The notes below the pieces were generated by a model, which saw nothing but the letters and a program-made list of their open reading frames with translations, did not search any database and was not told the origin of the DNA. Positions 10,702 to 62,722 of a stretch of DNA of 64,000 bases are shown here, one piece after another. Position numbers and translations under genes: made by a program. How positions within the stretch are numbered: the stretch's first letter is position 1; each line of letters begins with the position of its first letter. The DNA comes from a virus (Duplodnaviria > Caudoviricetes), in the IMG/VR virus record IMGVR_UViG_3300032285_001531. One strand, given 5' to 3'.

Positions 10702-10730
10702 TTGTATTCTTAACACATTTCTGCTATAAT
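10702..10730 (+). promoter_or_regulatory. sigma70-type promoter with extended -10, leaderless
   Basis: TTGTAT-17-TATAAT preceded by TGn; ATG 10737 follows after a 6-nt gap. Confidence 0.7.
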
Positions 10731-10736
10731 AATCTT

Positions 10737-11348
10737 ATGAACAAGATTGGCAATTTTGAATCCATTGGTTGTGATTGTGAGTTTGGATTGGTTCAACGAA
10801 CCTTGAATTACGAACCTATGACTTTATTAAGATGGTCTAGTATAAATTTACACAGTTTAGTTAGAATGATTGACGATGATTTTAAAGATTTAAAAAATAT
10901 TGATACATATGATATTGATAGAAATGACGATTTAGAATACATGGTTACTAATACAAGTTATCATCTTTGGTCACATACTGACACACGACATGACACTTCC
11001 AAATCTGAATTAATAGAATCATCCTTCAAACGAATAAATTATTTGCAACGTCAATTTGTAAAGGAAGCAAAAAATAATAAAAAAATATATGTTCACAAAT
11101 CTAAAAGTATTACTACTGAAGAAATGCAATTATTATATAATGCAATGAAATCATTAGGTGCTGATAGAATTTTATTTGTACTAAAAGACATTGACCTAAA
11201 AAATACGTTTGTTGAATCAGAATTTGGTTTGATTGCTTACATATCTGATTTTTATCCAAACACAAAGTTTGATGAATGGGAATCTATTCTTGATTATGCA
11301 CTTGAGTACTTTAATGAAAATAACATATCCCATAATAAATCAGTCTAA
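10737..11348 (+). CDS. Hypothetical Cys-motif protein (DUF1796-like, tentative)
   Basis: N-terminal FESIGCDCEFG...LLRWS resembles the DUF1796 SLGxxC start; first gene of the ligase-ACP cassette. Confidence 0.45.
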   Translation: MNKIGNFESIGCDCEFGLVQRTLNYEPMTLLRWSSINLHSLVRMIDDDFKDLKNIDTYDIDRNDDLEYMVTNTSYHLWSHTDTRHDTSKSELIESSFKRINYLQRQFVKEAKNNKKIYVHKSKSITTEEMQLLYNAMKSLGADRILFVLKDIDLKNTFVESEFGLIAYISDFYPNTKFDEWESILDYALEYFNENNISHNKSV

Positions 11349-12462
11349 CGAATTTAGAAAAACAGTTATAGAACAACTTTACTATTTGTCCGAACATATT
11401 AATTCTTTACAAATTGAAAATGATATGTTAATAATTAGTATAGATGATCCTTTATGTGTTGATGAAGCTGAAATTATAACATCGGTAAAAAGAATAATAG
11501 AAACTACGGAAAAAAGTTTTAGAGCCTTTAAAGAAACAATTTCATATGAATCGGAAAACAAATCTACTTACAACTTAGATCCTAATATATGGTTAATTGA
11601 AAACGGTGATTTATTAACACATAGTAATGGAACATATGTTTATACTGGTACTTTAGCAAAAGTTATTACTGGATTAGATAATTTCTTACAAAAATTATGT
11701 ATTAAGTTTGGAGCAGTTGAATATATATTTCCAACTACTATGCCGTTTGACTCATTAAACAACTCAGGATACATAAAATCTTTCCCACAACATGTAGGAT
11801 TTATTTCATATGGTCAAAAAGGATACGATGGTTTTACAAAATTAGTAACTGCTTTAGATGATAATCAAGTTGAAAAATACTTAGGAGACGTTAAATTAAT
11901 ACTAGCACCTACTGTTTGCCATCATTTATTTCAAACTATTAAACTTTCTAAATCTACTAAGAAATTGATTGTTACCGGAAGTTCAAAATGTCATAGAAAT
12001 GAAGATAAAACTGCATATGGAATTGAAAGATTAAACAGTTTCAACATGCGTGAAATAATTTTTATTGATGAACCCGATATAGTATCAAATAAACTAACAG
12101 AGTTTTCAAATATATTAAATGATATTTTTACTAAATGGAATATTTATTTTATAAAAATGAATGCTACTGACCCGTTCTTTGCAGGGGAAATGTCAAATAA
12201 AAAAATATATCAATCTATGCTAGATTTAAAAAACGAGTACAAATTTCATTTACCTTATAGTAATAAATGGCTTGCTACAACTTCTATAAATTATCATAGA
12301 GATAATATACTATATGGATTTGATATTAATACTGATAAGTTGCATTCAGGTTGTATAGCATTTGGATTAGAAAGAATTGCATTAAGTTTATTCTCTCAGT
12401 TTGGTACTAATACTAAAGAATGGCCTACAAATTTAACAGAAGATTTGGGGATTAACCTATGA
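11314..12462 (+). CDS. Class II aaRS-like (SerRS-like) amino acid:[carrier protein] ligase
   Basis: LAPTVCHH, motif 2 CHRNE..ERLNSFNMRE, TSINYHRD, motif 3 SGCIAFGLER; adjacent ACP gene; start moved from 11233 to ATG 11314. Confidence 0.8.
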   Translation: MKITYPIINQSNEFRKTVIEQLYYLSEHINSLQIENDMLIISIDDPLCVDEAEIITSVKRIIETTEKSFRAFKETISYESENKSTYNLDPNIWLIENGDLLTHSNGTYVYTGTLAKVITGLDNFLQKLCIKFGAVEYIFPTTMPFDSLNNSGYIKSFPQHVGFISYGQKGYDGFTKLVTALDDNQVEKYLGDVKLILAPTVCHHLFQTIKLSKSTKKLIVTGSSKCHRNEDKTAYGIERLNSFNMREIIFIDEPDIVSNKLTEFSNILNDIFTKWNIYFIKMNATDPFFAGEMSNKKIYQSMLDLKNEYKFHLPYSNKWLATTSINYHRDNILYGFDINTDKLHSGCIAFGLERIALSLFSQFGTNTKEWPTNLTEDLGINL

Positions 12463-12710
12463 TAGAAGATATTGTAAAATCAGTAATAGAAAAATATGCA
12501 AAAAAACCTATTACCAAAACAGAAAATTTTATTGAAGAAACTGATATTGATTCTTTATCATTAATAAACGTGTTAATGGATTTAGAAGAAGAACTTAACA
12601 TTGAATTTGATTTATCTGTTATGGTCATAGAAGATGTCAGTACCCTAGAAGATATGGTAAATTACGTTACAAAATTAAAGAATCAAGCGTTGCAAATCAG
12701 CAAAAATTAA
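12459..12710 (+). CDS. Acyl/aminoacyl carrier protein
   Basis: 83 aa, acidic; IDSLSLINVLMDLEEELNIEF with the phosphopantetheine Ser. Confidence 0.88.
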   Translation: MIEDIVKSVIEKYAKKPITKTENFIEETDIDSLSLINVLMDLEEELNIEFDLSVMVIEDVSTLEDMVNYVTKLKNQALQISKN

Positions 12711-20943: not shown

Positions 20944-21161
20944 TGACTGCTATATTTACATATCTTTTTATAGGTGGAGTGTTAGGATTTCTAATAGGAT
21001 TGAACAAGCACCAAACACCTACTGGTCTTATTAACTATAATATTTTAAAAAACGAACGAGATGAATCTGAGAGAAAACTTTTGTATTACAAAAAGGTAAT
21101 CAAAGACCTAGTAGAAGATAATCGTAAGCTAGTAAAAGAATTAGAAGAACATAATAAATGA
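20943..21161 (+). CDS. Small membrane-anchored coiled-coil protein
   Basis: Hydrophobic N-terminus. Confidence 0.6.
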   Translation: MTAIFTYLFIGGVLGFLIGLNKHQTPTGLINYNILKNERDESERKLLYYKKVIKDLVEDNRKLVKELEEHNK

Positions 21162-22141
21162 AAACAGTTGTAATTACCGGTTCAAATGGTTTTATAGGAA
21201 GTCATACTGCAAAAGTGTTTCGCAAAGCAGGTTACTATGTTGTGGGTATAGATAACAAATATACTATACCTGCAAATAAAGATTACTGTAATGAAGTTAG
21301 AATAGGTGATTATGACACTGTAGGCGCCTTTGCTATTCAGTATCATCAAGCTAATGCCATTGTGCATTGTGCTGCCAATTCACTTGTGGGACCAAGTATA
21401 AGTAATCCCTACAGTTATTATAACAATAATGTAGCAAAATTAAATCAATTTTTAAACACTTTACATGACATATATAATTGGCACGGTAGTATTATTTTTT
21501 CAAGTAGTGCTGCAGTGTATGGAACTAACTCTGATGAATCAATAAAAGAGAATGCCAACAAAGATCCAATAAGCCCATATGGTCGTAGTAAGTTAATGGG
21601 CGAACACATAATTAACGATTATTGTATTGCACATGGATATAAAGCAATTGCATTGCGTTATTTCAATGCAACTGGATGTGACATTGATGGTGAATTAGGT
21701 TGTATTAAGGATGATACTCATTTAGTTCCACGTGTTTCTACTGCAGCCTTGAATGAAAAATCATTAATCATTAATGGTAACGATTTCAACACTCCTGACG
21801 GTACATGCATACGTGATTACTTGCATGTAACTGACATTGCTAATGCACATTTAGCTGCTGTAGAGTTAAGTATGGGTTACAGTGAAGGTGAATTTGAAGT
21901 ATTCAATTTGGGTACTGGCACAGGATATAGTAACTTAGAAATTGCCAATGCATTCGTAGAGCATAATAAGATACCTTTAACTTGGGCATTTGGTCCTAGA
22001 CAAATAGGTGATCCTGATAAGCTAGTTGCAGATCCAATTAATTTTATACATGAAACTGGCTGGATGCCAGAACATAGTGATTTAGAAACAATAGTAACCA
22101 CAACTTTTGACTTCATGAAAAAAATGTATTACAATAATTGA
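21158..22141 (+). CDS. galE: UDP-glucose 4-epimerase (GalE-like)
   Basis: ITGSNGFIG, FSSSAAVYG, YGRSK, LRYFNA, DGTCIRDYLHV. Confidence 0.9.
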   Translation: MKTVVITGSNGFIGSHTAKVFRKAGYYVVGIDNKYTIPANKDYCNEVRIGDYDTVGAFAIQYHQANAIVHCAANSLVGPSISNPYSYYNNNVAKLNQFLNTLHDIYNWHGSIIFSSSAAVYGTNSDESIKENANKDPISPYGRSKLMGEHIINDYCIAHGYKAIALRYFNATGCDIDGELGCIKDDTHLVPRVSTAALNEKSLIINGNDFNTPDGTCIRDYLHVTDIANAHLAAVELSMGYSEGEFEVFNLGTGTGYSNLEIANAFVEHNKIPLTWAFGPRQIGDPDKLVADPINFIHETGWMPEHSDLETIVTTTFDFMKKMYYNN

Positions 22142-22952: not shown

Positions 22953-23426
22953 ATGATATTCAATCACATTAAGAAACTTAAAGCAGAAGGTAAGAAGATA
23001 GGTATAACATTTTCTACCTTCGACTTGTTACATGCAGGTCATATTGCTATGCTAAGTGAAGCAAAGAATCATTGTGATTATCTTATTGCTGGCTTACAAA
23101 CTGATCCAACAATAGATAGACCTGATACTAAGAATAAACCTGTGCAAAGTATTGTAGAACGACAAATTCAATTGTCAGCATGTCGTTATGTTGATGAAGT
23201 GGTTGTGTATCAAACTGAACAAGACTTAATTGACTTATTATTGATTCTACCAATAGATGTTAGAATACTAGGTGTAGAGTATGAGAACAAAGACTTTACC
23301 GGTAAGAAAGAATGCTGGGATCGTGACATTGAATTAGTATTCAATGGGCGTGATCATAGTTTCAGTTCTAGTAGTCTGCGTAAACGTGTTGCTAATGCAC
23401 AAATAGTTAATAAATTAAACAAATAA
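22953..23426 (+). CDS. Cytidylyltransferase (TagD/RfaE-like)
   Basis: TFSTFDLLHAGH, LIAGLQTD, SSSSLR. Confidence 0.88.
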   Translation: MIFNHIKKLKAEGKKIGITFSTFDLLHAGHIAMLSEAKNHCDYLIAGLQTDPTIDRPDTKNKPVQSIVERQIQLSACRYVDEVVVYQTEQDLIDLLLILPIDVRILGVEYENKDFTGKKECWDRDIELVFNGRDHSFSSSSLRKRVANAQIVNKLNK

Positions 23427-36206: not shown

Positions 36207-36959
36207 ATGAAAGACCTTACACTTTATTGCAACTGCTATCCAGAACACGAGAACCAGCACACACAATATATGCAAAAGAACTTAATGTGTGGTTCTAGTA
36301 ATATATCTGAAGAATATCGTAGAGAACTATTAAAAAAGAATTTTTACTTTGATGATAACGGATACAATATTTCAGAACTTAACAACTACTTAGGTGATTT
36401 AACCGGATTATATTATATTTGGAAGAATACCTCTGAGGGTATTATTGGTACTAATCAGTATCGTAGACATTGGCTTGAAGAAGAAGTTGATAATCTAAAG
36501 TTTGATGAAAGAACCTTTTATATTTCTGCCCCTTTTAAATTCAACAATAGTGTATATGACCAATTCATTGAAAGTCATGGATCAATGATGATGAATGTTT
36601 TATATGAAGCTGCTAAGCATAAAAAAATTCATCTTACTACAGAAGATGTAGAGCAGTTAAAGAATATCAATGTACTATCCTCTTGTAATATGTTTTTCTC
36701 TCATAGAGATATTTTTAATAAACTTTGCGAGATTCATTTTGAAACTATGTTTGAGATTTATAATGGTGTTAAATATGCACTGCCATTTATACAAGATGAT
36801 AATCCATGGCATGTAAATCAACCTAGAACATTGGCATTTCTTTCAGAGAGAATATTAACATTAACATATTTGAACATAAACAAATATATACCTAATACTA
36901 AAATAAAATCAGTGTCATGGGTTAATAACGGAACTCTTATACATAAACATGATCATTAA
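36207..36959 (+). CDS. DUF4422-like glycosyltransferase-associated protein, leaderless
   Basis: GTNQYRRHW, SCNMF, AFLSERI; TATAAT 36195-200, then ATG after a 6-nt gap. Confidence 0.7.
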   Translation: MKDLTLYCNCYPEHENQHTQYMQKNLMCGSSNISEEYRRELLKKNFYFDDNGYNISELNNYLGDLTGLYYIWKNTSEGIIGTNQYRRHWLEEEVDNLKFDERTFYISAPFKFNNSVYDQFIESHGSMMMNVLYEAAKHKKIHLTTEDVEQLKNINVLSSCNMFFSHRDIFNKLCEIHFETMFEIYNGVKYALPFIQDDNPWHVNQPRTLAFLSERILTLTYLNINKYIPNTKIKSVSWVNNGTLIHKHDH

Positions 36960-36961
36960 TA

Positions 36962-38230
36962 ATGAACTTAACTGAAATCAGCAAACAATTCAATCCCGCA
37001 TACATTAAGAACTATGATAACTTTGATTCGTCAAAAGATAGTGTCTTATATGCAGGACCTTATTGGAATCATTTAGAACTTGAAGCGATACTTGATAGTG
37101 TACTCAACGGCAACTGGATAGTAAGTGGTCCTAAAGTAGAACAGTTTCAGGATGAATTCGCTAAGAAGTTTAACGTTGGTTATAGCCACATGGTCAATAG
37201 TGGTAGTAGTGCTAATCTAGTTATGATAGCAGCATTGAAGAAACGTTTTCGTTGGAATGACAACGATGAAATTATTGTTAGCCCGGTTGGCTTCCCTACA
37301 ACTATTGCACCTATTGTACAAAACAAACTAACACCCAAGTTTATTGACATTGAGTTTGATACATTGAACTTTGATGTTAATTTAATAGAAGAGGCAATAA
37401 ACAAAAAAACACGAGCAATCATTGTAAGTCCTGTACTAGCTAATCCACCTGACATGGACAGAATCAAACAGATATGCGTTGACAATGATTTGTTATTGAT
37501 TGGTGATAACTGTGATAGTCTTGGTACATTATACAATGATAAGCCATTAAGTGATTACTATTATAGTTGGAGTTGTAGTTTCTATCCCGCACATCATATC
37601 AGCACTGGTGAAGGTGGAATGGTGTCAAGTAACGATAAGTTTCTTATTGACTTAGTGCGTAGTATTAGTTGGTGGGGTAGAGATTGTTATTGTACAGGTG
37701 TTAACAACACATTGAGTTGTGGTACATGTGGTAAGCGTTTTGATTACTGGCTAGAGAACTATGATGGTATTATTGACCACAAGTATATCTATAGTAACAT
37801 GGGATACAATCTTAAGCCACTTGACTTACAAGGTGCAGTTGGTTCAGTACAACTAACTAAGGTAGATGATATATGCACTAAACGCAAACATAATAAAGAA
37901 CAGATAGAACAAATGCTCGTGCGTCATTTAGGTATTGTACCTGTTAAAGTATATAAGAACGCTGACCCTAGTTGGTTCGGTGTACCTATTGTATGTCGTA
38001 AACAGGGTGAGAAAGAGTTATTAGTAGCTCATTTTGAAGCAAACAGAATACAAACACGTAATTATTTTGGTGGCAATATCTTATTGCACCCGGCGTATAA
38101 ACACTTAGGTGACTACAAGAAATTCCCTAATGCAAACAAAGTATTAGACTATGTTTTTTTCTTGGGTTGCAGTCCGTTGTATAACGACAGTGTATTAGAT
38201 TATTTTAATGAAGTGATTAAGAAATGGTAA
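36962..38230 (+). CDS. rfbH: RfbH/DdhC-like CDP-4-keto-6-deoxyglucose 3-dehydrase (DegT/DnrJ family)
   Basis: VNSGSSANL, GDNCDSLG, SFYPAHHISTGEGG (His in place of the Schiff-base Lys), CYC..CGTCG Fe-S motif. Confidence 0.85.
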   Translation: MNLTEISKQFNPAYIKNYDNFDSSKDSVLYAGPYWNHLELEAILDSVLNGNWIVSGPKVEQFQDEFAKKFNVGYSHMVNSGSSANLVMIAALKKRFRWNDNDEIIVSPVGFPTTIAPIVQNKLTPKFIDIEFDTLNFDVNLIEEAINKKTRAIIVSPVLANPPDMDRIKQICVDNDLLLIGDNCDSLGTLYNDKPLSDYYYSWSCSFYPAHHISTGEGGMVSSNDKFLIDLVRSISWWGRDCYCTGVNNTLSCGTCGKRFDYWLENYDGIIDHKYIYSNMGYNLKPLDLQGAVGSVQLTKVDDICTKRKHNKEQIEQMLVRHLGIVPVKVYKNADPSWFGVPIVCRKQGEKELLVAHFEANRIQTRNYFGGNILLHPAYKHLGDYKKFPNANKVLDYVFFLGCSPLYNDSVLDYFNEVIKKW

Positions 38231-39009
38231 ATTTATTCGGTAAAGGATTTATTGGGACACGATACTCAAATATATATCCATGCGTAGTCAATGAGCGTAA
38301 TGATTTGGTGCCTAAAATATCAAATGTATTATACATGATAAGCACTACGGACAACTACAATGTTAATGTAAATCCATATATTGATATTGAAACTAATCTT
38401 ACTACACTAATACGTGTATTAGAAAACTGCAAGAATAAGAACATGACATTCAACTTTATAAGTAGTTGGTTTGTCTATGGAAATAGTACATTACCATGTA
38501 GTGAAGATAGCGTATGTAATCCAAAAGGATTCTACAGTATCACTAAAAGGACAGCAGAGCAATTATTAATAGAATACTGTGAAAAATACGATATAAAATA
38601 CCGTATATTAAGATTAGCTAATGTCATAGGACCAAATGATAAAAACGTATCAGCGAAAAAGAACGTGTTGACCTATGTAGCTAATAGATTACTGCTTGGA
38701 CTTGATGTTGAACTATATGATGGTGGAGATTTTTACCGTGATTACATACATGTAGATGATGCGTGTAGAGCAATCAATCTTATATTAGAGAAGGGTGAAC
38801 TCAACACCATCTACAATGTAGGTAACAACGAGTCAATAAAATTTAAAGACGCTGTTAATTATATAGCAACATTAACTAAATCAAAATCTGTAATAACCAA
38901 CGTACCCGGAGAAGTATACGATATGAGTTTAGATTGTAGAAAGTTATTCGATTTGGGATATAGTCCGGAATACAATACGGATGCAATGTTACAAACGTTA
39001 CTGTCCTAA
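38224..39009 (+). CDS. NAD-dependent epimerase/dehydratase
   Basis: GKGFIG, FISSWFVYG, YSITK, RDYIHVDD. Confidence 0.88.
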   Translation: MVNLFGKGFIGTRYSNIYPCVVNERNDLVPKISNVLYMISTTDNYNVNVNPYIDIETNLTTLIRVLENCKNKNMTFNFISSWFVYGNSTLPCSEDSVCNPKGFYSITKRTAEQLLIEYCEKYDIKYRILRLANVIGPNDKNVSAKKNVLTYVANRLLLGLDVELYDGGDFYRDYIHVDDACRAINLILEKGELNTIYNVGNNESIKFKDAVNYIATLTKSKSVITNVPGEVYDMSLDCRKLFDLGYSPEYNTDAMLQTLLS

Positions 39010-47645: not shown

Positions 47646-48842
47646 ATGGAAGAAGAAAACAAACTAAATCACTGCAGTTTTTGCGGAACTAATAAAGAAT
47701 TTGTTAAGAAGCTTATAGTAGGGGACGGAGTAGCAATTTGTAGCGACTGCGTTGAATTATGTGATGACCTGATTATGGATGATTTTAAGATAGAATCTCC
47801 TAAATCAGAACCCAACTATGATCCTGACAAAATCAAAGCTTATTTGGATGAACACGTAATAGGTCAAGATAGTGCTAAGATTGTACTAAGTGTAGCAATC
47901 AGCAATCATTATAAACGTATTACTCACCCACCTAAAGACCTTGAGATTCAAAAGGGTAATGTACTAATCGTTGGACCTACAGGTTCAGGTAAAACATTGC
48001 TTGCCAAAACAGTTGCAAAATATCTTAAGGTTCCCTTCATTGTTGCTGATGCTACTAGCCTAACTGAAGCTGGTTATGTTGGTGATGATGTAGAGTCAAT
48101 GATTACTATGCTTGTTAATGCTGCAGGAGGTGATGTAGCTTTAGCTGAACAGGGTATTATATTTGTTGATGAAATAGATAAAATCGCACGTAAAGGCGAA
48201 AGTACAAGTATTACCCGTGATGTAAGTGGTGAAGGTGTACAGCAAGCATTATTAAAGCTAGTTGAAGGTACGACTTGCAGAGTATCATCACAAGGTGGCA
48301 GAAAGCATCCGGGCAATGATATGAATGAAATAAACACTAAGAACATATTATTCATTGCAGGAGGAGCCTTTGTTGGTCTGAAAGACGTTATAGCTACACG
48401 TGAAAATGGAACTAGTATTGGATTTAGTGCAAGCATCAAAGATACAAAAATTGAGGGTGATTTAAGTAAAGTTACTCCGGACGATTTAACAAAGTATGGA
48501 ATGATTCCTGAGTTTATTGGACGTTTTACAACTACAGTCAGTATTAGCGAACTGAACAAAGAACAGTTAATTAAGGTTCTTAAGGATGTGAAAAATAACT
48601 ATATCAGTCAGTATAAATATCTATTCAGTTTAGACAAGATAGAACTAAGTTTTACAGACGAAGCTTTAGAACAGATAGCAGAGAATACATTAACGCTAAA
48701 AACTGGGGCTAGAGGCTTACATACTGAGATTGAGCGTGTATTAATGACACACATGTACAATGTGGGCAGATACAAAGAAAATAATATAAAAACGCTAAAT
48801 ATTACTAAGGATGATGTTTTAGAACCTAAATCAATATTATGA
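47646..48842 (+). CDS. clpX: ATP-dependent Clp protease ATP-binding subunit
   Basis: CSFC..CSDC Zn-binding domain, GPTGSGKT, FVDEIDK, RDVSGEGVQQALL, IGF loop, TGARGL. Confidence 0.96.
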   Translation: MEEENKLNHCSFCGTNKEFVKKLIVGDGVAICSDCVELCDDLIMDDFKIESPKSEPNYDPDKIKAYLDEHVIGQDSAKIVLSVAISNHYKRITHPPKDLEIQKGNVLIVGPTGSGKTLLAKTVAKYLKVPFIVADATSLTEAGYVGDDVESMITMLVNAAGGDVALAEQGIIFVDEIDKIARKGESTSITRDVSGEGVQQALLKLVEGTTCRVSSQGGRKHPGNDMNEINTKNILFIAGGAFVGLKDVIATRENGTSIGFSASIKDTKIEGDLSKVTPDDLTKYGMIPEFIGRFTTTVSISELNKEQLIKVLKDVKNNYISQYKYLFSLDKIELSFTDEALEQIAENTLTLKTGARGLHTEIERVLMTHMYNVGRYKENNIKTLNITKDDVLEPKSIL

Positions 48843-49054
48843 GTGGAAAAAAAGTAATCGTACATGACGGCAATGTTGAGAAAGCATTGCGTAAATTCAA
48901 AAAGAAAGTTGCAGAATCTGGTATTCTGCAAGAAGTACGTGAGCGCCAAGAATATGTCAAACCCAACATCAAACGCAAAGTAGCCAAAAGTCTTGCAAAA
49001 AGACGCTGGAAGAAATTCCTAAAAGATCAAACTCTCCCCAAAAAATTATATTAA
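48839..49054 (+). CDS. rpsU: Ribosomal protein bS21
   Basis: NVEKALRKFKKK..GILQEVRERQEYVKP. Confidence 0.9.
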   Translation: MSGKKVIVHDGNVEKALRKFKKKVAESGILQEVRERQEYVKPNIKRKVAKSLAKRRWKKFLKDQTLPKKLY

Positions 49055-49161
49055 CCTAAATAATTTACTTTTTTACGCAAAAAGTATACACTAAATATAC
49101 AAGTAGATGCCGAAGTCGGGTCTACTTAATGTCATAACTTGCTTATTGAAAGGAGATAAAA

Positions 49162-49608
49162 ATGACAAATTCAACACTAACCCTTCGTGCCCGCGATATT
49201 CCCGCAATTCATAGATTTGGTATCGGTTTCGATACTATGATAGATGAACTACTACGACTATCCTCGGTACAACAAAGTAATTACCCTCCGTATAACCTTC
49301 TAAAAATAGATGAGGACGTTTTCAATATTGAAATCGCCGTTGCTGGATTCAAAGAAGGCGAAATTGAGGTTACCATAGAAAAAAATGTATTGACCGTTAA
49401 GGGTGCTAAAAAAGACGGCATTCCAGAAAACATCGAATACGTACATCATGGCATCAGTACACGTAATTTTGAGCGCACTTTCCCATTAGCTGAACATATT
49501 GAAGTTAAGGGTGCTATCATACGTGACGGTATGCTAGTTATTGATTTGGTCCGTATCATCCCAGAAGATGAGAAGCCCAAATCTATTGCTATTTCTTACG
49601 TAAAGTAA
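49162..49608 (+). CDS. Small heat-shock protein Hsp20 (IbpA-like)
   Basis: NYPPYNL, IAVAGF, HHGISTRNF, DGML, IPEDEKPKSIAI. Confidence 0.93.
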   Translation: MTNSTLTLRARDIPAIHRFGIGFDTMIDELLRLSSVQQSNYPPYNLLKIDEDVFNIEIAVAGFKEGEIEVTIEKNVLTVKGAKKDGIPENIEYVHHGISTRNFERTFPLAEHIEVKGAIIRDGMLVIDLVRIIPEDEKPKSIAISYVK

Positions 49609-49619
49609 TAAACTAAATA

Positions 49620-49649
49620 AAAGTGTGCAGTAATTCTGCTGCACACTTT
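49620..49649 (+). terminator. 11-bp inverted repeat between hsp20 and clpS
   Basis: AAAGTGTGCAG/CTGCACACTTT. Confidence 0.55.
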
Positions 49650-49667
49650 ACTCATATAAGGTAAAAG

Positions 49668-49973
49668 ATGGCAAATTCAGATACAAAACTAAAAATTAAA
49701 CCGAACTTTAAGATTCCGGAACCTCCTATGTACAAAATCATTTATATGAATGATGACCATACAAGCATGGACTTTGTAGTTAGCAGCCTAATTGAACATT
49801 TTAATTATAATGCAGATACCGCTGTCAATATTACACAGAATATTCATGTTGAAGGATCAGCTACAGTAGCAGTGTTACCTTATGAGATAGCCGAACAAAA
49901 GGGTATTGAAGTAACTGTAGATGCAAGATCACAGGGATTTCCGTTACAGGTTAAAATAGAACAAGAAGGTTAA
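49668..49973 (+). CDS. clpS: N-degron adaptor ClpS
   Basis: PPMYKIIYMNDDHTSMDFV..IHVEGSA..EIAE..FPL. Confidence 0.92.
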   Translation: MANSDTKLKIKPNFKIPEPPMYKIIYMNDDHTSMDFVVSSLIEHFNYNADTAVNITQNIHVEGSATVAVLPYEIAEQKGIEVTVDARSQGFPLQVKIEQEG

Positions 49974-50656
49974 ATTTCTATACGTTTAGCCCAATAGGGC
50001 TTGCTTACACAAGGGTTAGACACAAATCTTATTCCACTAAGTGTTGTGTCTATCATCTTATCAGTTGCACCAAAAATCCAATTCTTAACTTTCTTTTCGG
50101 TATCTGCTGTTAAAACCATAGTTGGACAAATGTCATCCGATAATCTGTTAGTATCCCCAAAAAATAGTTTTGTGTCGGGTATACAATTACTAACTACCAC
50201 AATATCCTTAACATCCATATGTAATTGCAATTTTTTGACGGTATTATAAAGATATACTATATCTTCTCTACGATATGATTCTGCTAGTAGGTCCTGCTCT
50301 AAATCAATGATAGGATAATTACCATACCATCCGTTTATTGCGATTAGTGCTACCCCATTTAAAACTACTACGTTATTGTGCAAAAACACTGTATTGTTTG
50401 TGCTGTCACACATCTTTCCTATTTCTTCTACTCTATCTTGTTGAAGCATAAGATCAAAATGTTCTAATCCACCATCGATGTAAAAAACACCTTGATAGAA
50501 TGTAGATAGATAGGTTAGTGTGCGTTGTATTGTTTTTAAATCATGGGACAGATTCCCTGCAACAATGCAGAATAAACTAGTTACTTTATCAGTCCAATCA
50601 AACTTATCCTCAGGATAAAGATCCAAGTCACTGATTATGTCAAAACTAATGCTCAT
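49970..50656 (-). CDS. Degenerate calcineurin-like metallophosphoesterase
   Basis: Fold motifs present, but the metal ligands are substituted (SDLDL, AGNL, DGGLEH, FGAT). Confidence 0.65.
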   Translation of the reverse strand: MSISFDIISDLDLYPEDKFDWTDKVTSLFCIVAGNLSHDLKTIQRTLTYLSTFYQGVFYIDGGLEHFDLMLQQDRVEEIGKMCDSTNNTVFLHNNVVVLNGVALIAINGWYGNYPIIDLEQDLLAESYRREDIVYLYNTVKKLQLHMDVKDIVVVSNCIPDTKLFFGDTNRLSDDICPTMVLTADTEKKVKNWIFGATDKMIDTTLSGIRFVSNPCVSKPYWAKRIEI

Positions 50657-50673
50657 ATAGTATTTATATGGTA

Positions 50674-50691
50674 TCGGGACTTTCGTCCCGA
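50674..50691 (-). terminator. GAAA-tetraloop hairpin
   Basis: TCGGGAC-GAAA-GTCCCGA on the minus strand, right after the stop at 50695. Confidence 0.55.
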
Positions 50692-50694
50692 CTA

Positions 50695-50928
50695 TTATTT
50701 TTCTTTTTTAGCTTTAGGTTTTTTAGCAGCAGGTGTTTTTGCTGTTTTTGGCTTAGCTGTTTTTTTAGCCTTCTTTTCTACTTTAACTGGTTCTTCTACT
50801 TTTAAAGTAAGGGTGGGTGTCATATCTACTGCATCTATTACAGGTTCTTGCGGGCGACTAGTAGGAAATGGCCAAGGTTCCTGTTTTTTTGGTTCTAACC
50901 TAAATAGTTTTTTAACAAAGTCTAACAT
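50695..50928 (-). CDS. Lys/Ala/Pro-rich hypothetical protein
   Basis: AAGGAG SD; PWPFP motif; histone-like tail. Confidence 0.7.
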   Translation of the reverse strand: MLDFVKKLFRLEPKKQEPWPFPTSRPQEPVIDAVDMTPTLTLKVEEPVKVEKKAKKTAKPKTAKTPAAKKPKAKKEK

Positions 50929-51058
50929 ATGAATCTCCTTTATAGTATTTAGAGCCAAATCAAATAAAATATTAATTTAAGCAATATTACCTAAATACTT
51001 TAATAGCTGATATCAATTTGCTATAGTGACTTACTTTCTAATTTTATAAAGGAATCAA

Positions 51059-51646
51059 ATGTCGTTAGTACCAATTGTAATTGAATCAACTAGCAAGGGT
51101 GAACGTAGCTATGACATCTATAGTCGTTTATTGCGTGACCGTGTAATTTTGCTTGAGGGCGAAGTGCATGACCATATGGCAAATCTAATCGTAGCACAAC
51201 TACTCTTTTTGGAATCAGAAGATGATAAGAAAGATATATCCCTTTATATCAACAGTCCCGGCGGCAGTGTTACTGCTGGTATGGCTATTTACGATGCTAT
51301 GCAATTTATCAAGCCTGATGTTTCTACCATCGTTATGGGCCAAGCTTGTAGTATGGGTTCATTGCTTGCTAACGCTGGTGCTAGTGGCAAACGTTTTATC
51401 CTGCCGAACGCAAGACACATGATTCATCAACCATCAGGTGGCGCCCGCGGCCAAGCAACTGATATGTTAATTCAAGTAAATGAAATTATGGAAATGAAAC
51501 GTAATCTAACACAGATTTACGTTAAACATAATAGTGCAGGCAAATCATTTGATGAACTTGCTGCAGATATGGAACGTGATAACTTTATGAGTGCTGACCA
51601 AGCCGTATCATATGGTCTTGCTGATAAAGTAATTACACAACGATAA
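51059..51646 (+). CDS. clpP: ATP-dependent Clp protease proteolytic subunit
   Basis: [15 protein letters not shown], catalytic ACSMGS, MIHQP, ERD. Confidence 0.96.
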
Positions 51647-58453: not shown

Positions 58454-58767
58454 TAAGTTTTAGGTCCTGCAGATTGTTCTATAACTTCAACACCAGTACC
58501 TACTCCAAGGATACATGAAGTATCACCGTAAGTATCTATTACTGTAAATGTTTTGGTTTCAGGATTTCCCCAAAAGGATATCATATGTTGACTTGATCCT
58601 AATCCTTTTCCCACTACTATTGGTACCTCAACATATTCTTTTTTTAATGTCTGCACTATAACTGCAGTATCATCACATATTACTTCAAACGGTACAGAAT
58701 GTTGCTCTGCATTACTTAGAGTTGGTGCGATACACAGTATCCCAATCAGAAGGTAAATTTTGTTCAC
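58453..58767 (-). CDS. Secreted hypothetical protein
   Basis: Signal peptide; Cys pair. Confidence 0.7.
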   Translation of the reverse strand: MNKIYLLIGILCIAPTLSNAEQHSVPFEVICDDTAVIVQTLKKEYVEVPIVVGKGLGSSQHMISFWGNPETKTFTVIDTYGDTSCILGVGTGVEVIEQSAGPKT

Positions 58768-60766
58768 GTAGTTCTCCTATTCTTTCTATCATCATATGAT
58801 AGTATTTGTCCATCTCTGAATCAAATTCCCCATGAAGTTGGTTCAGTAGTTCTAATGCTTCATCCCACTTTTGCTTGCGGTAGTGATCCAGCATCAGGTC
58901 ATGTTCTACACGTGATACTAAATATTCTGCCATTGAGTTTGCATCTGTTTTTAATACTGTAAAGATTCTAACACCTTCAGTCTTACCTTTTACTGCTATA
59001 ATATCTAATTCTAATGTGAAGTAATCATCACTTATCTGTTCTGCTGTCTTAGGTCCTAATACAATCTTGACACCATAAGGCTTAGACTGTCCTTCCAAAC
59101 GTGAAGCAAGATTGACACCATCACCAAGGCAAGTATAGTCAAAACGTTGACTAGACCCCATATTTCCCACAACAACAGTATCGGTATTGATTCCCAGACC
59201 CATACCAAAAGCTGGCACACCTTCTTTCGTAATTTCTTCATTGAACTCAGTTAAACTTTCCATCATCTCTAATGCCGTTTTAACAGCATCTTTTGCATGA
59301 TTGCTATTACCTACTGGAGCATTCCAGAAAGCCATTTGTGCATCGCCAATATACTTGTCTAATGTACCTTTGTTTTCTAGTATCTTTTTTGTCATAGCAG
59401 TCATGTACCTATTCATGATCTTTGTAAGACCCTGAACGTCTTTGCCATAATGTTCACTGATTGTTGTAAAGCCACGAACATCAGTAAACATAATAGACAA
59501 TTCTTGGCTTTCTCCACCTAACTTAAGTAGATCGGGTTGTCGTTGCAATTGTGCAACTAAGTCTGGTGATAAGTATGTACCAAACTGTTTCTTAATTTGT
59601 TGTTTTTGTAAAAATTCACTTATGAACTTAATGCCATAGCAATGTAGCATAACCAACACACTACTAACAATAAGCGCAGTGGCATCGACAAGCCATTTGT
59701 ACTTGGTAAAAGTATAAAAACTACCGGGCACAACGCTGCCAATAATAATGACAGATATAATAATTCCAGCATATGTCCACCTTGATATAAAAATAATTAT
59801 TAGACCTACTAGTATCAAGCCTAATATCTCAGCACCGTCTATCCAATCAGGACGTTCGATGTTAACTCCATTAATCATTGTGCCAATTACTGCTGCTTGT
59901 ACATCTTGTGGATATACTGCACCACGTGCTGTTGGTACTGGATTAGCTATACCTGCTGCACTTGTTCCTACGATTACTATTGCACCACCAAAGTCTGCGG
60001 GTAAGTCAACTGCACTTACACTCTTATTACTTTGACTCCAATCAATCCATATACGACCTAATGGATCAGTGCTGATTGGTCCGAACTGAGGTATACGCAT
60101 TTTCTCTACACCTAGTTCATTTAATTTAATTTGAAAACTTGGATCACCTGCAGCAACACGTAATGTTTCTAATGCTATTGAAGGATATAGTAAATCATTT
60201 ACACTTACTACTAAAGGTAATCTACGATTAACACCATCAATCTCAGGCATTACATTTGCAATACCAACACCTGCAGCATTTTCTTCTAATGGGCTTACGT
60301 TAGCAATTAATCCAGGATACACTACAATTCTATCAACAAATTCAGGACGCATAATACTTACACCAACTTGTTTAGGTGTATTCTTACTACGTGCTGAAGG
60401 TGTGTTACTTAATACTACAGGATGAGTTGCTAATGATTCTGCTAGTGCTTCATCTTGTCCGTTACGATCGGCTTCAGGCATTAATATATTCCACACTACA
60501 AGCCCCGCATGACGTTTATATAATTCATCAATTAGATTAGCATATTCATTTCTGGGTAAAGGCCATTGTCCATACTTATCTAGTGTAGCCTCATCTATGT
60601 TTACGGTGTAGATGTTGTTTTGTGTTATAGGTTGACTGATTATTACAGTATCAAAATATCGTAGACGAATTGATTCCACAAATGCAGGATCTGCAATGCG
60701 CAATAATGCTAACAATGCTAGTGTTATTAGTGAAGTCCAAGGGCTTAATAATATTTTCTTAATCAT
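58712..60766 (-). CDS. CHASE2-domain class III adenylate cyclase
   Basis: IDEATLDKYGQWPLPR, PEIDGVNRR (CHASE2), three TM segments, FTDVRGFT, DKYIGDA, GDGVNLASRLE. Confidence 0.92.
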   Translation of the reverse strand: MIKKILLSPWTSLITLALLALLRIADPAFVESIRLRYFDTVIISQPITQNNIYTVNIDEATLDKYGQWPLPRNEYANLIDELYKRHAGLVVWNILMPEADRNGQDEALAESLATHPVVLSNTPSARSKNTPKQVGVSIMRPEFVDRIVVYPGLIANVSPLEENAAGVGIANVMPEIDGVNRRLPLVVSVNDLLYPSIALETLRVAAGDPSFQIKLNELGVEKMRIPQFGPISTDPLGRIWIDWSQSNKSVSAVDLPADFGGAIVIVGTSAAGIANPVPTARGAVYPQDVQAAVIGTMINGVNIERPDWIDGAEILGLILVGLIIIFISRWTYAGIIISVIIIGSVVPGSFYTFTKYKWLVDATALIVSSVLVMLHCYGIKFISEFLQKQQIKKQFGTYLSPDLVAQLQRQPDLLKLGGESQELSIMFTDVRGFTTISEHYGKDVQGLTKIMNRYMTAMTKKILENKGTLDKYIGDAQMAFWNAPVGNSNHAKDAVKTALEMMESLTEFNEEITKEGVPAFGMGLGINTDTVVVGNMGSSQRFDYTCLGDGVNLASRLEGQSKPYGVKIVLGPKTAEQISDDYFTLELDIIAVKGKTEGVRIFTVLKTDANSMAEYLVSRVEHDLMLDHYRKQKWDEALELLNQLHGEFDSEMDKYYHMMIERIGELREQNLPSDWDTVYRTNSK

Positions 60767-60802
60767 CTATCTACCTTATAGTTTGTAATAGTATTTAGAC
60801 AC

Positions 60803-60841
60803 AAAAAAATAGCAGTCTAACTAGATATAATTAGACCGCTA
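60803..60841 (-). terminator. Rho-independent terminator (minus strand)
   Basis: TAGC(A/C)GTCTAA/TTAGAC stem with a 7-nt U-tract; TAAATA at 60792-97 re-initiates for the cyclase. Confidence 0.55.
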
Positions 60842-60864
60842 CCAAAAACTACCGTACTACTTTA

Positions 60865-61008
60865 TTATTGTTGTTCTACTTCCCGCTTCCATTTTTCATG
60901 ATTTTGGATAACTAGTTCTATTAGTTCTATACGGTGTCTAAGTCTTAGATGGATATCCTGCACAGTATAACCATGTTCAATCATACGTAGAATTAATTCA
61001 ATGTTCAT
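60865..61008 (-). CDS. Small ORF (47 aa, not in track)
   Basis: MNIELILRMIEHGYTVQDIHLRL... Confidence 0.4.
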   Translation of the reverse strand: MNIELILRMIEHGYTVQDIHLRLRHRIELIELVIQNHEKWKREVEQQ

Positions 61009-61017
61009 TCTTATAGT

Positions 61018-61611
61018 CTAATGTTTAATATAACTATACATGCCGCACGTGCCTGGGGCACAGTTAATCATAATACTTGCTTGGTCTACTGTAGTTGGAT
61101 TATCCTGTACTACATTGACTGTTGCATTTGTTGCACCGTGTAGATAAACTTTAAACCATTTATCTGATCCTACATCACCGCTTTGGGTAGATGTTATAGT
61201 GTTACCATTATTTACATTATTACCATCAACAATTAAAGTATGAGATCCTGAACCTGTTTGTCCTATAGTAATACTGTTACCATTACCTTGTAAATTCTGT
61301 ATGTTAGCTATGTGATTACCTGAACCACTTTGATTAATGTCTATTGTGTTATTAATTCCGGCTTTAACTTCAACGGTTGCTGTTTTAGCAGCACCTTGTT
61401 GAGTTATTGTAAACACAGAATAATCTACATCACTAATACTGCCTGTGTTTATAGTGGCGGTGTGTCCTAACCCTGTTTGTTCAATAGTAACTGTATTGCC
61501 AGTACCAATTTGATCTACACTAATTGTATTGTCTGCACTCCATGCATAACCCACCACTAATAGTAGTAAAACTAAAACAAAATATAATATAGTAGCTAGT
61601 CTAAAGTTCAT
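61018..61611 (-). CDS. Secreted curlin-like repeat protein
   Basis: Signal peptide; repeats of the type IxQxGxxNxxxIxQxG. Confidence 0.7.
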   Translation of the reverse strand: MNFRLATILYFVLVLLLLVVGYAWSADNTISVDQIGTGNTVTIEQTGLGHTATINTGSISDVDYSVFTITQQGAAKTATVEVKAGINNTIDINQSGSGNHIANIQNLQGNGNSITIGQTGSGSHTLIVDGNNVNNGNTITSTQSGDVGSDKWFKVYLHGATNATVNVVQDNPTTVDQASIMINCAPGTCGMYSYIKH

Positions 61612-61612
61612 C

Positions 61613-62722
61613 TTAATGTTGTGTAATTGTTATATTGCTTGTGCCACCTGCATTGACACGATTCTTAAATTCCATACGTTCTTGATTAATAGTAATAGTC
61701 ACATCTCTAGTTTGTCTTACTGTAGCACATGCAATGTTACTGCCATTATCTTCACGACATAATTGCACAATTGGATCTTCAATGACTGCTACTACACCAG
61801 TTAATGCTACATAATCAGGTAACAGTCTAGCATTAGCATTCTCTAAATAATCCATCTGCGCTTTAAGCATAGCATTAATTAAATCAAGTATATTAACTAG
61901 AAAATCTCTTTCTAAAAAATTAACATCTAATTTACTATACTTGAATGGATCTTGTGTTGCTAATACATTATCTAGTCCTTCATATTTTAAATAATCAACG
62001 TCTAGAAAACCTTTTTTAGTATCACCACGTGCTTCATTGTTGTTCTCAGATTTAACTGGAGTCATAATCAATAAATTATTCATTTGGTCTTCATCCAGTT
62101 TTAATATAACTGGCTTCATAGGTTTTGTTTCACGTGTTTGTACTACAGTAGCCTGAAAAGGTTGATTCATTATCACAACACCTTCATCACTTGTTACACT
62201 AATCTCACCTGTCTTACAATCTGTTTTAACATCACGCCAGCCTACTGGACAACTAGGCAACAACACAATAGTACTACGACCAAGTTCATCTACTGCTGCG
62301 GTGAAGTCTGTACCACGAACACCAATTGTGGCTGATGGAGTATTAACTGCTACTGATTGTGGATTGTTCTTTGCTATTTGACCTGATGCGTAACGTACGG
62401 TACCTAATGCTATATTAACAGCAAGTTTTCCACCTGTCTTGCTGTTAGGATCATAAACAAAATCATCTATAACTAGTTTACTATTCTCCGTTACCTGTAC
62501 CTTTGTGTTGTCTGCGAACGTGAGTCCCACTTTTCCCTGTTGGGTTCTTACCGTATCTAACATCTCCAGTCCAGTCCCTTTGGACCCCGTCAACGTCTGC
62601 TTCTGTCGTAGTATCGAAGGCGGAGTCTGAACTTGTTCCGTTATCGTCCCTATTGCTGCGTTTACGTTCATTGGCGATATGCTCAGCAATAGTAAGGATA
62701 TTCTTAGGTACCATGTTTTCAT
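61613..62722 (-). CDS. FecR-domain protein
   Basis: Signal peptide; ENSKLVID, GTVRYASG, TPSATIGVRGTDF. Confidence 0.85.
   Translation of the reverse strand: MKTWYLRISLLLLSISPMNVNAAIGTITEQVQTPPSILRQKQTLTGSKGTGLEMLDTVRTQQGKVGLTFADNTKVQVTENSKLVIDDFVYDPNSKTGGKLAVNIALGTVRYASGQIAKNNPQSVAVNTPSATIGVRGTDFTAAVDELGRSTIVLLPSCPVGWRDVKTDCKTGEISVTSDEGVVIMNQPFQATVVQTRETKPMKPVILKLDEDQMNNLLIMTPVKSENNNEARGDTKKGFLDVDYLKYEGLDNVLATQDPFKYSKLDVNFLERDFLVNILDLINAMLKAQMDYLENANARLLPDYVALTGVVAVIEDPIVQLCREDNGSNIACATVRQTRDVTITINQERMEFKNRVNAGGTSNITITQH

Follow-up and report, generated by a model that had tools for sequence, protein, structure and literature searches.

A three-gene jumbo phage cassette of an aminoacyl-tRNA synthetase-like amino acid:carrier protein ligase, an acyl carrier protein and a candidate Cys-dependent aminoacyl transferase

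The DNA considered here, a stretch of 64,000 nucleotides (nt) from the virus record IMGVR_UViG_3300032285_001531 of IMG/VR (hereafter the window), belongs to a jumbo phage of ~350 kb (the contig with these genes is 349,679 bp), and its T4-like family-B DNA polymerase is closest, at the DNA level, to jumbo phages such as XaC1, PA5oct and Atu_ph07. Positions 10737-12710 of its plus strand are occupied by a cassette of three overlapping genes, all of them at the places where a first-pass annotation, made from the letters of this DNA, had put them. The first (gene 1, 10737-11348) codes for a soluble protein of 203 amino acids (aa) that belongs to a DUF1796-like family and carries the motif SIGCDC in its N-terminus; it is proposed below to be a Cys-dependent transferase that uses an aminoacyl group thioester-linked to an acyl carrier protein (ACP). 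The second (gene 2, 11314-12462) codes for a 382-aa class II aminoacyl-tRNA synthetase (aaRS)-like amino acid:[carrier protein] ligase, which belongs to a subfamily of ~390 aa, and the third (gene 3, 12459-12710) for an 83-aa acyl/peptidyl carrier protein with a DSL motif at residues 31-33, in which Ser32 is the predicted phosphopantetheine site. The open reading frame (ORF) of the ligase is open from 11233, and the ATG at 11314 is the real start, as independent gene calls on other contigs use this position and the homologues align from residue 1. The overlap between gene 1 and the ligase is 35 nt, and that between the ligase and the ACP is the 4-nt ATGA, from which translation of the ACP is judged to be coupled to that of the ligase. 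The flanks are likewise as previously described, with the gene for a GNAT/ASCH protein of 906 aa on the upstream side, and a dsbA-like gene and that for the family-B DNA polymerase on the downstream side.

The AT-rich character that the first-pass annotation had noticed extends to the entire cassette, which has a GC content of 0.269 vs 0.351 for the window and ranks second lowest among 311 two-kb segments. The low GC is uniform across all three genes and falls far under that of the neighboring genes (35-37%), which suggests that the phage acquired the cassette horizontally and in one piece, from a donor of lower GC. In L001, a copy of the cassette with ~93% identity, all three genes are retained at ~90% aa identity, and the ratios of nonsynonymous to synonymous substitution between the two copies (0.21 for gene 1, 0.23 for the ligase and 0.19 for the ACP) indicate purifying selection, and thereby functional genes. 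Co-occurrence of the genes elsewhere, on which the earlier annotation had made its reading depend, is thus found for all three in L001, and relatives of gene 1 and the ligase also adjoin each other on two short metagenome contigs (L008/L009), where a 399-aa protein with a C-terminal domain 49% identical to gene 1 ends 10 nt before a ligase 48% identical to that of the phage. An extended -10-like motif, TGCTATAAT (10722-10730, plus strand), lies 6 nt before the ATG of gene 1 with no Shine-Dalgarno sequence in between, and its counterpart in L001 is TGTTATAAT. As a pattern match this motif might be viewed as a candidate promoter of a leaderless transcript; such motifs are not enriched in the window (11 found vs 8.2 expected), and TGCTATAAT is not among the sites reported by a -35/-10 scan of it. 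No T4-type late promoter (TATAAATA) is present near the cassette, and the 4 occurrences in the window are below chance expectation.

Profile searches with the ligase recovered NCBIfam NF005479 (amino acid--[acyl-carrier-protein] ligase) as the best family (E 1.5e-38, 132.6 bits), with the type-2 seryl-tRNA ligase models NF002120 and TIGR00415 scoring lower, at 114.1 bits (cut-off 611) and 69.9 bits (cut-off 489.55). Sequence matches to solved structures likewise favored the amino acid:carrier protein ligase Bll0957 (E 3.9e-25) over type-2 seryl-tRNA synthetases (SerRS; E 1.2e-13 and 1.6e-10). A better alignment to tRNA-charging SerRS had been named in advance as an outcome that would count against the carrier ligase assignment, and the opposite was found. 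The protein possesses a SerRS-type class II aaRS catalytic core in which motifs 2 and 3 are present, as noted earlier, and the three residues that had been singled out as candidate Zn ligands, namely C202 (in PTVCHH), E247 (in MRE) and C347 (in GCIAFG), align with a Cys, a Glu and a Cys of Bll0957 and are invariant in 31 family members. We take these positions of Bll0957 to be its Zn ligands, so that metal binding by the phage enzyme is predicted. Its AlphaFold2 model (pLDDT 90.1) superimposes on Bll0957 with a TM-score of 0.87 (normalised by target) and a root-mean-square deviation (rmsd) of 2.6, and comparisons with Bll0957-type structures in general gave 26-28% identity and an rmsd of 2.3-2.8 over about 290-300 residues. 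The N-terminal ~70-85 residues form a small beta-alpha-beta-beta-alpha-beta domain with no equivalent in Bll0957, which is at most half the size of the tRNA-binding domain of SerRS (~165 aa). The match to the SerRS hidden Markov model begins at ligase residue 57 and model position 160, the full tRNA-binding domain being absent, and in the low-rmsd superpositions the aligned range of the ligase starts at 68-73, with the N-terminal domain unmatched. The ligase is also shorter than full-length type-2 (methanogen-type) SerRS (382 vs ~520 aa).

The ACP matches PF00550 (E 2.1e-8, 34.8 bits vs a gathering score of 20.8), which bears out its earlier identification as an ACP with a DSL motif; it is also matched by the ACP families of NCBIfam and PHROG and by ACPs in the PDB (E 5e-5), and resembles generic type II ACPs. 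Potential partner enzymes were sought with precomputed Pfam assignments on identical metagenome contigs and local profile models, together covering window positions ~1,300-62,150, i.e. ~61 of 64 kb. Within this range there is no phosphopantetheinyl transferase (PPTase), as had been stated for the window, and neither an MBOAT nor a DltD protein.

A word-indexed search with the ligase recovered, besides near copies, 51 relatives of about 380-400 aa with 25-38% identity, and a genome scan for further relatives gave 270 loci, 80 of which were analysed. An ACP gene lies on the same strand less than 300 bp from the ligase in 79 of 87 family loci, and this conserved context marks the group as a family of carrier protein ligases. 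In a maximum-likelihood tree a long branch, supported at 100/100, divides the ~390-aa family from the Bll0957-like proteins. Since it forms a separate clade and falls below the curated cut-off of the NCBIfam model, the phage ligase is, by sequence, a member of a distinct subfamily within the amino acid:carrier protein ligase superfamily and not an equivalog of Bll0957. Within the subfamily it is sister (99/99) to the ligase of a locus (L002) with an MBOAT and a gene that jackhmmer identifies as DltD-like, and the two are nested in a proteobacterial clade with an MBOAT at 9 of its 16 loci; the long branches and skewed composition call for caution regarding this placement.

The neighborhoods of the cellular relatives are of several kinds. 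Among the 90 sequences scanned (89 loci and the window), 23 are accompanied by an MBOAT and 9 by DltD. The MBOAT is DltB-like and occurs beside the ligase in proteobacterial, verrucomicrobial and acidobacterial loci, often inside glycosyltransferase clusters, and several of these loci also have an ORF of 46-47 aa at the position of DltX. The combination of a ~390-aa aaRS-like ligase and ACP with an MBOAT, and in some cases DltD, is seen in L002-L007, L012-L016, L022, L027, L035 and others. Loci of this type would be a Dlt-like system with a class II aaRS homologue in place of DltA; no description of an aaRS-like ligase linked to MBOAT or DltD was found in the searchable (open-access) literature. 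In a large Chloroflexota group the ligase and ACP instead co-occur with NeuB, a CMP-sugar cytidylyltransferase, a capsule-synthesis protein, a sulfotransferase and a GT2 glycosyltransferase, which suggests the aminoacylation of nonulosonic acids or capsule. In these loci (within L017-L089, mostly Chloroflexota/Anaerolineales), the capsule-synthesis protein is of the Capsule_synth type and NeuB is fused to a xylose-isomerase-like TIM barrel. In an Alteromonadaceae locus (L011) a DegT sugar aminotransferase is encoded two genes upstream of the ligase relative, with an ACP-fused protein of 404 aa in between, for which a weak DltD/SGNH-like match (Atlas score 0.82) provides a lead only. Taken together, the Dlt-like, nonulosonic-acid and amino-sugar contexts of the ~390-aa subfamily suggest aminoacylation of surface glycans.

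Gene 1 gave no significant match in Pfam, NCBIfam or PHROG, including to PF08795 or PF08942 for the phage protein itself; Pan_kinase (E 0.013) and DUF7602 (E 0.014) were below cut-off and rejected as noise. A word-indexed search retrieved the near copy only, and an exhaustive phmmer search recovered 1998 bacterial cluster representatives (50% identity clusters) at E<=1e-3. Most of these contain a ~200-aa version of the domain at the C-terminus of a larger protein, often behind TPR repeats. Across 53 diverse members G11, C14, G17, L30 and W181 are invariant, while F7, E15, F16, Q20, R21, E26, P27, R32, L41, H80, R99, L103, V119 and L146 are conserved in at least 90%, and the family has the signature FESLGxNCEFGLVQR. 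In the confidently predicted structure (pLDDT 91.5) Cys14 lies where a strand passes into a helix, and His80 is the last part of a strand. Fold searches of the AlphaFold DB clusters, BFVD and the ESM Atlas recovered DUF1796 proteins, labeled 'putative papain-like cysteine peptidase', along with DUF1919 proteins; some of these matches also carry a GT61, DUF4422 or GT2 domain, and members from giant viruses and phages are included. Gene 1 thus shares its fold with DUF1796 models and with PDB 2g6t, the link to the latter being one of fold alone: the sequence-profile comparisons with solved structures yielded just chance matches to Duffy-binding proteins (E about 0.07-0.1), which were discarded. 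Five of the 53 relatives touch PF08795, weakly (best E 0.0066). On this evidence the gene 1 family is related to DUF1796/DUF1919 but separate from them, and is unmodelled in Pfam. DUF1919 has been noted as an unexplained gene in exopolysaccharide and capsule loci (PMC5901230, PMC3609815), and no experimental study of the function of any DUF1796 or DUF1919 member was found in the open-access literature.

The genomic contexts of gene 1 relatives were examined in 80 loci, each from a different bacterial species, with Acetobacteraceae, Rhodospirillales and Beijerinckiaceae making up most of them. None has an aaRS-like ligase within 8 kb, and 23 have an ACP no more than 3 kb from the gene-1-family gene. 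Within 500 bp of the ACP lies an FkbH-like gene in 18 of these 23 loci and an AMP-binding adenylase in 2 (Pfam confirms the AMP-binding loader in L142 and L100), and the other 3 have no recognised loader. The unit that FkbH enzymes load onto an ACP is glyceryl. Among the loci with both an FkbH-like gene and an ACP next to the gene 1 homologue is that of Nitrospirillum amazonense (L150), whereas that of Rhodopila globiformis (L157) has neither within 8 kb. In L120, where Pfam confirms FkbH_N, the locus adjoins a 1534-aa GT2+GT9 protein and radical-SAM enzymes, and in L145 the gene 1 domain is fused to TPR and WcbI domains and adjoins an ACP. Giant GT2+GT9 proteins, B12/radical-SAM enzymes and WcbI are found nearby in loci of the range L093-L169 (e.g. 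L120 280-8618; L142 6642-10564; L145 9115-13833). No description of FkbH in glycan contexts, or of a link between FkbH and the gene 1 family, was found in the open-access literature, and the alphaproteobacterial loci might represent an undescribed carrier-dependent module for glycan or protein acylation. In the phage lineage, and separately in L008/L009, the aaRS-like ligase takes the place of these loaders. The gene 1 domain and the carrier appear to be the constant elements across these associations and the carrier-loading enzyme the variable one, for which the simplest reading is that the gene 1 domain acts on the loaded carrier. The earlier guess that gene 1 might be a Cys transacylase has in this way gained independent contextual backing, in the form of an invariant Cys and the repeated presence of carriers and loaders as neighbors.

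These architectural and contextual observations point to a potential mechanism. The ACP would be converted to its holo form by the AcpS or Sfp of the host, or by a phage PPTase encoded outside the window. The zinc-dependent SerRS-like ligase would then use ATP to form an aminoacyl-adenylate and transfer a small amino acid as a thioester to the phosphopantetheine arm of the ACP. Characterised amino acid:carrier protein ligases use Gly or Ala, and by analogy the amino acid loaded here might be Gly, Ala or Ser. We hold these two steps, formation of the holo-ACP and its loading by the ligase, to be very probable from the sequence comparisons. The soluble gene 1 protein would next take the aminoacyl group from aminoacyl-S-ACP, probably as a thioester of Cys14 assisted by His80, and hand it to a nucleophile on a cytoplasmic acceptor; the invariant Cys and conserved His fit an acyl-enzyme thioester mechanism, and a soluble Cys enzyme in place of MBOAT/DltD implies an acceptor in the cytoplasm. 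Given the gene contexts and the conserved residues, transfer from aminoacyl-S-ACP to such an acceptor by gene 1 is marginally favored. The acceptor could speculatively be an amino sugar, a nucleotide sugar or a glycan, perhaps from the sugar genes of the phage itself. That it is a carbohydrate is a tentative choice, which follows from the glycan, capsule or Dlt-like nature of all contexts of both families, from the fusion of the gene 1 fold to glycosyltransferases, and from the presence of a sugar toolkit in the phage (see below). An amino sugar is our leading guess. Aminoacylation would then yield a modified glycan on some structure of the phage or host, be it virion proteins, phage DNA or the host envelope, and an N-aminoacylated amino sugar would be a natural outcome. 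The reading as a whole, of a cytoplasmic module combining a loader, a carrier and a Cys-dependent aminoacyl transferase, we judge to be evenly balanced between right and wrong.

Several observations weigh against it. The ligase is far under the equivalog cut-off of NF005479 (132.6 vs 357) and bears an N-terminal domain beyond the Bll0957 type, no PPTase is encoded in the part of the window covered, and the carbohydrate acceptor is a matter of conjecture. The gene 1 domain is absent from 80 cellular ligase loci, so that its pairing with an aaRS-like ligase rests on the phage lineage and one diverged short contig. Conversely, 57 of the 80 gene 1 family loci have no ACP within 3 kb, indicating that the family is not strictly carrier-dependent. 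Finally, the superfamily of gene 1 is annotated as a putative peptidase, which makes hydrolysis possible. On the last of these points turns an alternative in which the ligase and ACP act as proposed and gene 1 is a hydrolase. It would be a thioesterase or peptidase serving to release or proofread the amino acid on the ACP, or else a protease that has nothing to do with the carrier. The nearest named families do carry the papain-like peptidase label, and a Cys/His pair would suit hydrolysis as well as transfer. However, this annotation is an automatic one for which no function was found in searchable papers, a futile cycle of loading followed by hydrolysis has no obvious use, and the fusions to TPR repeats and glycosyltransferases along with the placement in glycan loci better suit a modifying enzyme; we therefore regard a hydrolase as unlikely. 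Gene 1 might alternatively act independently of the carrier, for instance in glycan modification with coenzyme A thioesters or with none, and the aminoacyl-S-ACP would pass to a Dlt-like MBOAT/DltD system of the host, or to a phage enzyme outside the window, leading to aminoacylation of a host envelope polymer. The nesting of the phage ligase in an MBOAT-rich clade (9 of 16 loci), its sister relationship to a locus with MBOAT and DltD-like genes, and the gene 1 loci lacking an ACP all speak for such an arrangement. Yet gene 1 and the ligase have 35 nt in common and the same anomalous GC, and the two are paired again elsewhere at 48-49% identity, MBOAT and DltD were not found in the ~61 kb, and a hand-off to the host requires that the phage ACP be cognate to a host enzyme, all of which make this arrangement fairly unlikely.

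A further question is whether the aminoacyl group might be destined for the phage DNA, on a hypermodified base or its sugar, in which case the cassette would be a new DNA-hypermodification module tied to the 7-deazaguanine and glycosyltransferase genes at about 17-27 kb. The cassette adjoins replication genes and lies 4-14 kb from the deazaguanine, GalE-like, cytidylyltransferase-like and putative glycosyltransferase genes, and the gene 1 protein, being soluble, would be cytoplasmic. Nevertheless, none of the contexts found for relatives of the ligase or of gene 1 concerns DNA modification, all being glycan, capsule or Dlt-like, and the amino-acid-bearing thymidine hypermodifications known to us use other chemistry and no carrier protein. 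Such a destination consequently appears quite improbable. That the ligase is a genuine, truncated seryl-tRNA synthetase charging tRNA, with the ACP as an incidental neighbor, is hardly credible: it does retain the SerRS-type core, but its N-terminal part has about 70-85 residues where SerRS has about 165, the scores favor the amino acid:carrier protein ligases (with 114 bits against a type-2 SerRS cut-off of 611), the window contains no tRNA gene, and the coupling to an ACP is kept in 79 of 87 loci. Beyond the module itself lies a bolder extension of the proposed loader, carrier and transferase reading, namely that gene 1 founds a new acyltransferase class that depends on carrier proteins and combines a DUF1796-like fold with a Cys nucleophile. 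Such enzymes would take whatever the neighboring loader puts on the ACP (aminoacyl with an aaRS-like ligase, glyceryl with FkbH, acyl with an adenylase), and the phage enzyme would aminoacylate an amino sugar made by the phage and finally borne by its virion DNA or proteins; in this complete form we consider it decidedly unlikely.

The proposed module is reminiscent of several known systems. The ligases of the Bll0957/Atu2573/Bll6282 type (PDB 3mey, 4h2s) are said to go back to work by Mocibob et al. in 2010 and 2013, with charging of the carrier reportedly shown in 2010. Like them, the phage cassette has a truncated SerRS-type class II core, the Cys/Glu/Cys positions and an adjacent gene for a DSL carrier, whereas its ligase is ~60 residues longer, has the extra N-terminal alpha/beta domain, is encoded by a phage and is paired with a DUF1796-like Cys enzyme. 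The Gram-positive Dlt system (DltA, DltC, the MBOAT DltB, DltD and DltX) offers a parallel in its logic of an ATP-dependent loader, an aminoacyl-S-carrier and a transfer step, in that case to an envelope polymer. The parallel extends to the cellular ligase relatives encoded with a carrier and MBOAT, some with DltD and some with the short ORF at the DltX position. In contrast, the phage loader is a class II aaRS homologue and not an AMP-binding adenylase, and a soluble Cys enzyme is present with no MBOAT or DltD in ~61 kb. The AlmEFG system of Vibrio cholerae, which reportedly adds glycine to lipid A (Hankins et al. 2012 is said to be the source) by transfer from the carrier to a glycolipid with a transferase on the cytoplasmic side, is similarly a three-gene module of amino-acid loader, dedicated carrier and transferase. 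However, AlmE is DltA-like and AlmG is an acyltransferase of the LpxL family, with no homology between either of them and the phage ligase or gene 1. In the zwittermicin, oxazolomycin and tetronate pathways, glyceryl-S-ACP is formed by FkbH-type loaders that have ACPs of their own. The FkbH-like gene and ACP that flank a gene-1-family gene in 18 alphaproteobacterial and other loci parallel the phage combination of ligase, ACP and gene 1, with the differences that the acyl group would be glyceryl and that the loci are glycosyltransferase/radical-SAM clusters and not polyketide clusters. From DUF1796/DUF1919 proteins (PDB 2g6t, Clostridium acetobutylicum CAC2185) gene 1 differs in having no significant Pfam match.

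A review of 2022 concluded that the biological role of carrier aminoacylation by aaRS-like ligases 'remains unknown' (PMC9437257). The comparative data assembled here suggest a role for these ligases in the aminoacylation of surface glycans. For the large DUF1796-like-fold family, with about 2000 representatives, acyl transfer from loaded carriers would be a first testable functional hypothesis, and the phage cassette, as a compact and soluble version with three proteins, should be easy to reconstitute in vitro. If correct, the reading would add a new type of auxiliary or modification pathway to phage biology. Were the amino-sugar modification of the virion to hold as well, the phage would have the first viral hypermodification pathway that depends on a carrier protein, and aaRS-like amino acid:carrier protein ligases would have their first physiological role.

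The cassette gave no match in a megablast search against a phage database, and a tblastn search with the ligase against 50,697 phage records recovered a single match, MT835751.1 (L182; 'UNVERIFIED Bacteriophage sp.'). This record was rejected as a phage precedent, having bacterial-looking neighbors (ABC transporter, IS66 transposase, HAD and CYTH) and a ligase and ACP with no gene 1 domain; the neighbors of its ligase and ACP include an NTP_transf_5 gene and the gene for a 518-aa protein with no annotation. One doubtful match in so many records fits the statement of the first-pass annotation that no phage example had been characterised. A single-protein search of IMG/VR was without match. A profile search of the same database recovered five AT-rich contigs (L175-L179, ~30% GC) that have ligase-like ORFs (456-490 aa) but lack an ACP gene next to them, and these were set aside as not being relatives of the cassette. 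In the encoded proteins an N-terminal aaRS core is followed by an extension of about 200 aa, and they form a different viral aaRS-like family. It also recovered five high-GC contigs with gene-1-family genes, one of which (L173) has an adjacent ACP. In L173 (7767-9366, 69% GC) the gene-1-family gene is followed by the ACP at the contig end, beside a phage integrase and an HNH endonuclease, and this may be a gene 1 and carrier pair borne on a prophage.

Elsewhere in the window the phage encodes a sugar toolkit. Three consecutive genes on the plus strand, identified by precomputed Pfam assignments, comprise a DUF4422 glycosyltransferase-like gene (36285-36959), with a low GC of 0.283 like that of the cassette, a DegT/DnrJ/EryC1 sugar aminotransferase (36962-38230) and an NAD-dependent epimerase/dehydratase (38224-39009). 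This amino-sugar module at 36285-39009 is a possible supplier of the acceptor of the cassette. The toolkit further includes a GalE-like epimerase (21158-22141) and a cytidylyltransferase-like protein (22953-23426). Other features of the window are a ferritin-like protein (2373-2816) and a membrane fatty-acid desaturase (PF00487; 3381-4085), both upstream of the late-protein block, and a proteostasis cluster (47646-51646) with a ClpX-like AAA+ protein (47646-48842), ribosomal protein S21 (48839-49054), HSP20 (49162-49608), ClpS (49668-49973) and ClpP (51059-51646). The minus strand at 58712-62722 codes for a protein combining CHASE2 with a guanylate/adenylate cyclase (58712-60766), a weak curlin-repeat protein (61018-61611) and a FecR-like protein (61613-62722). 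It is unusual for a phage to have signalling genes.

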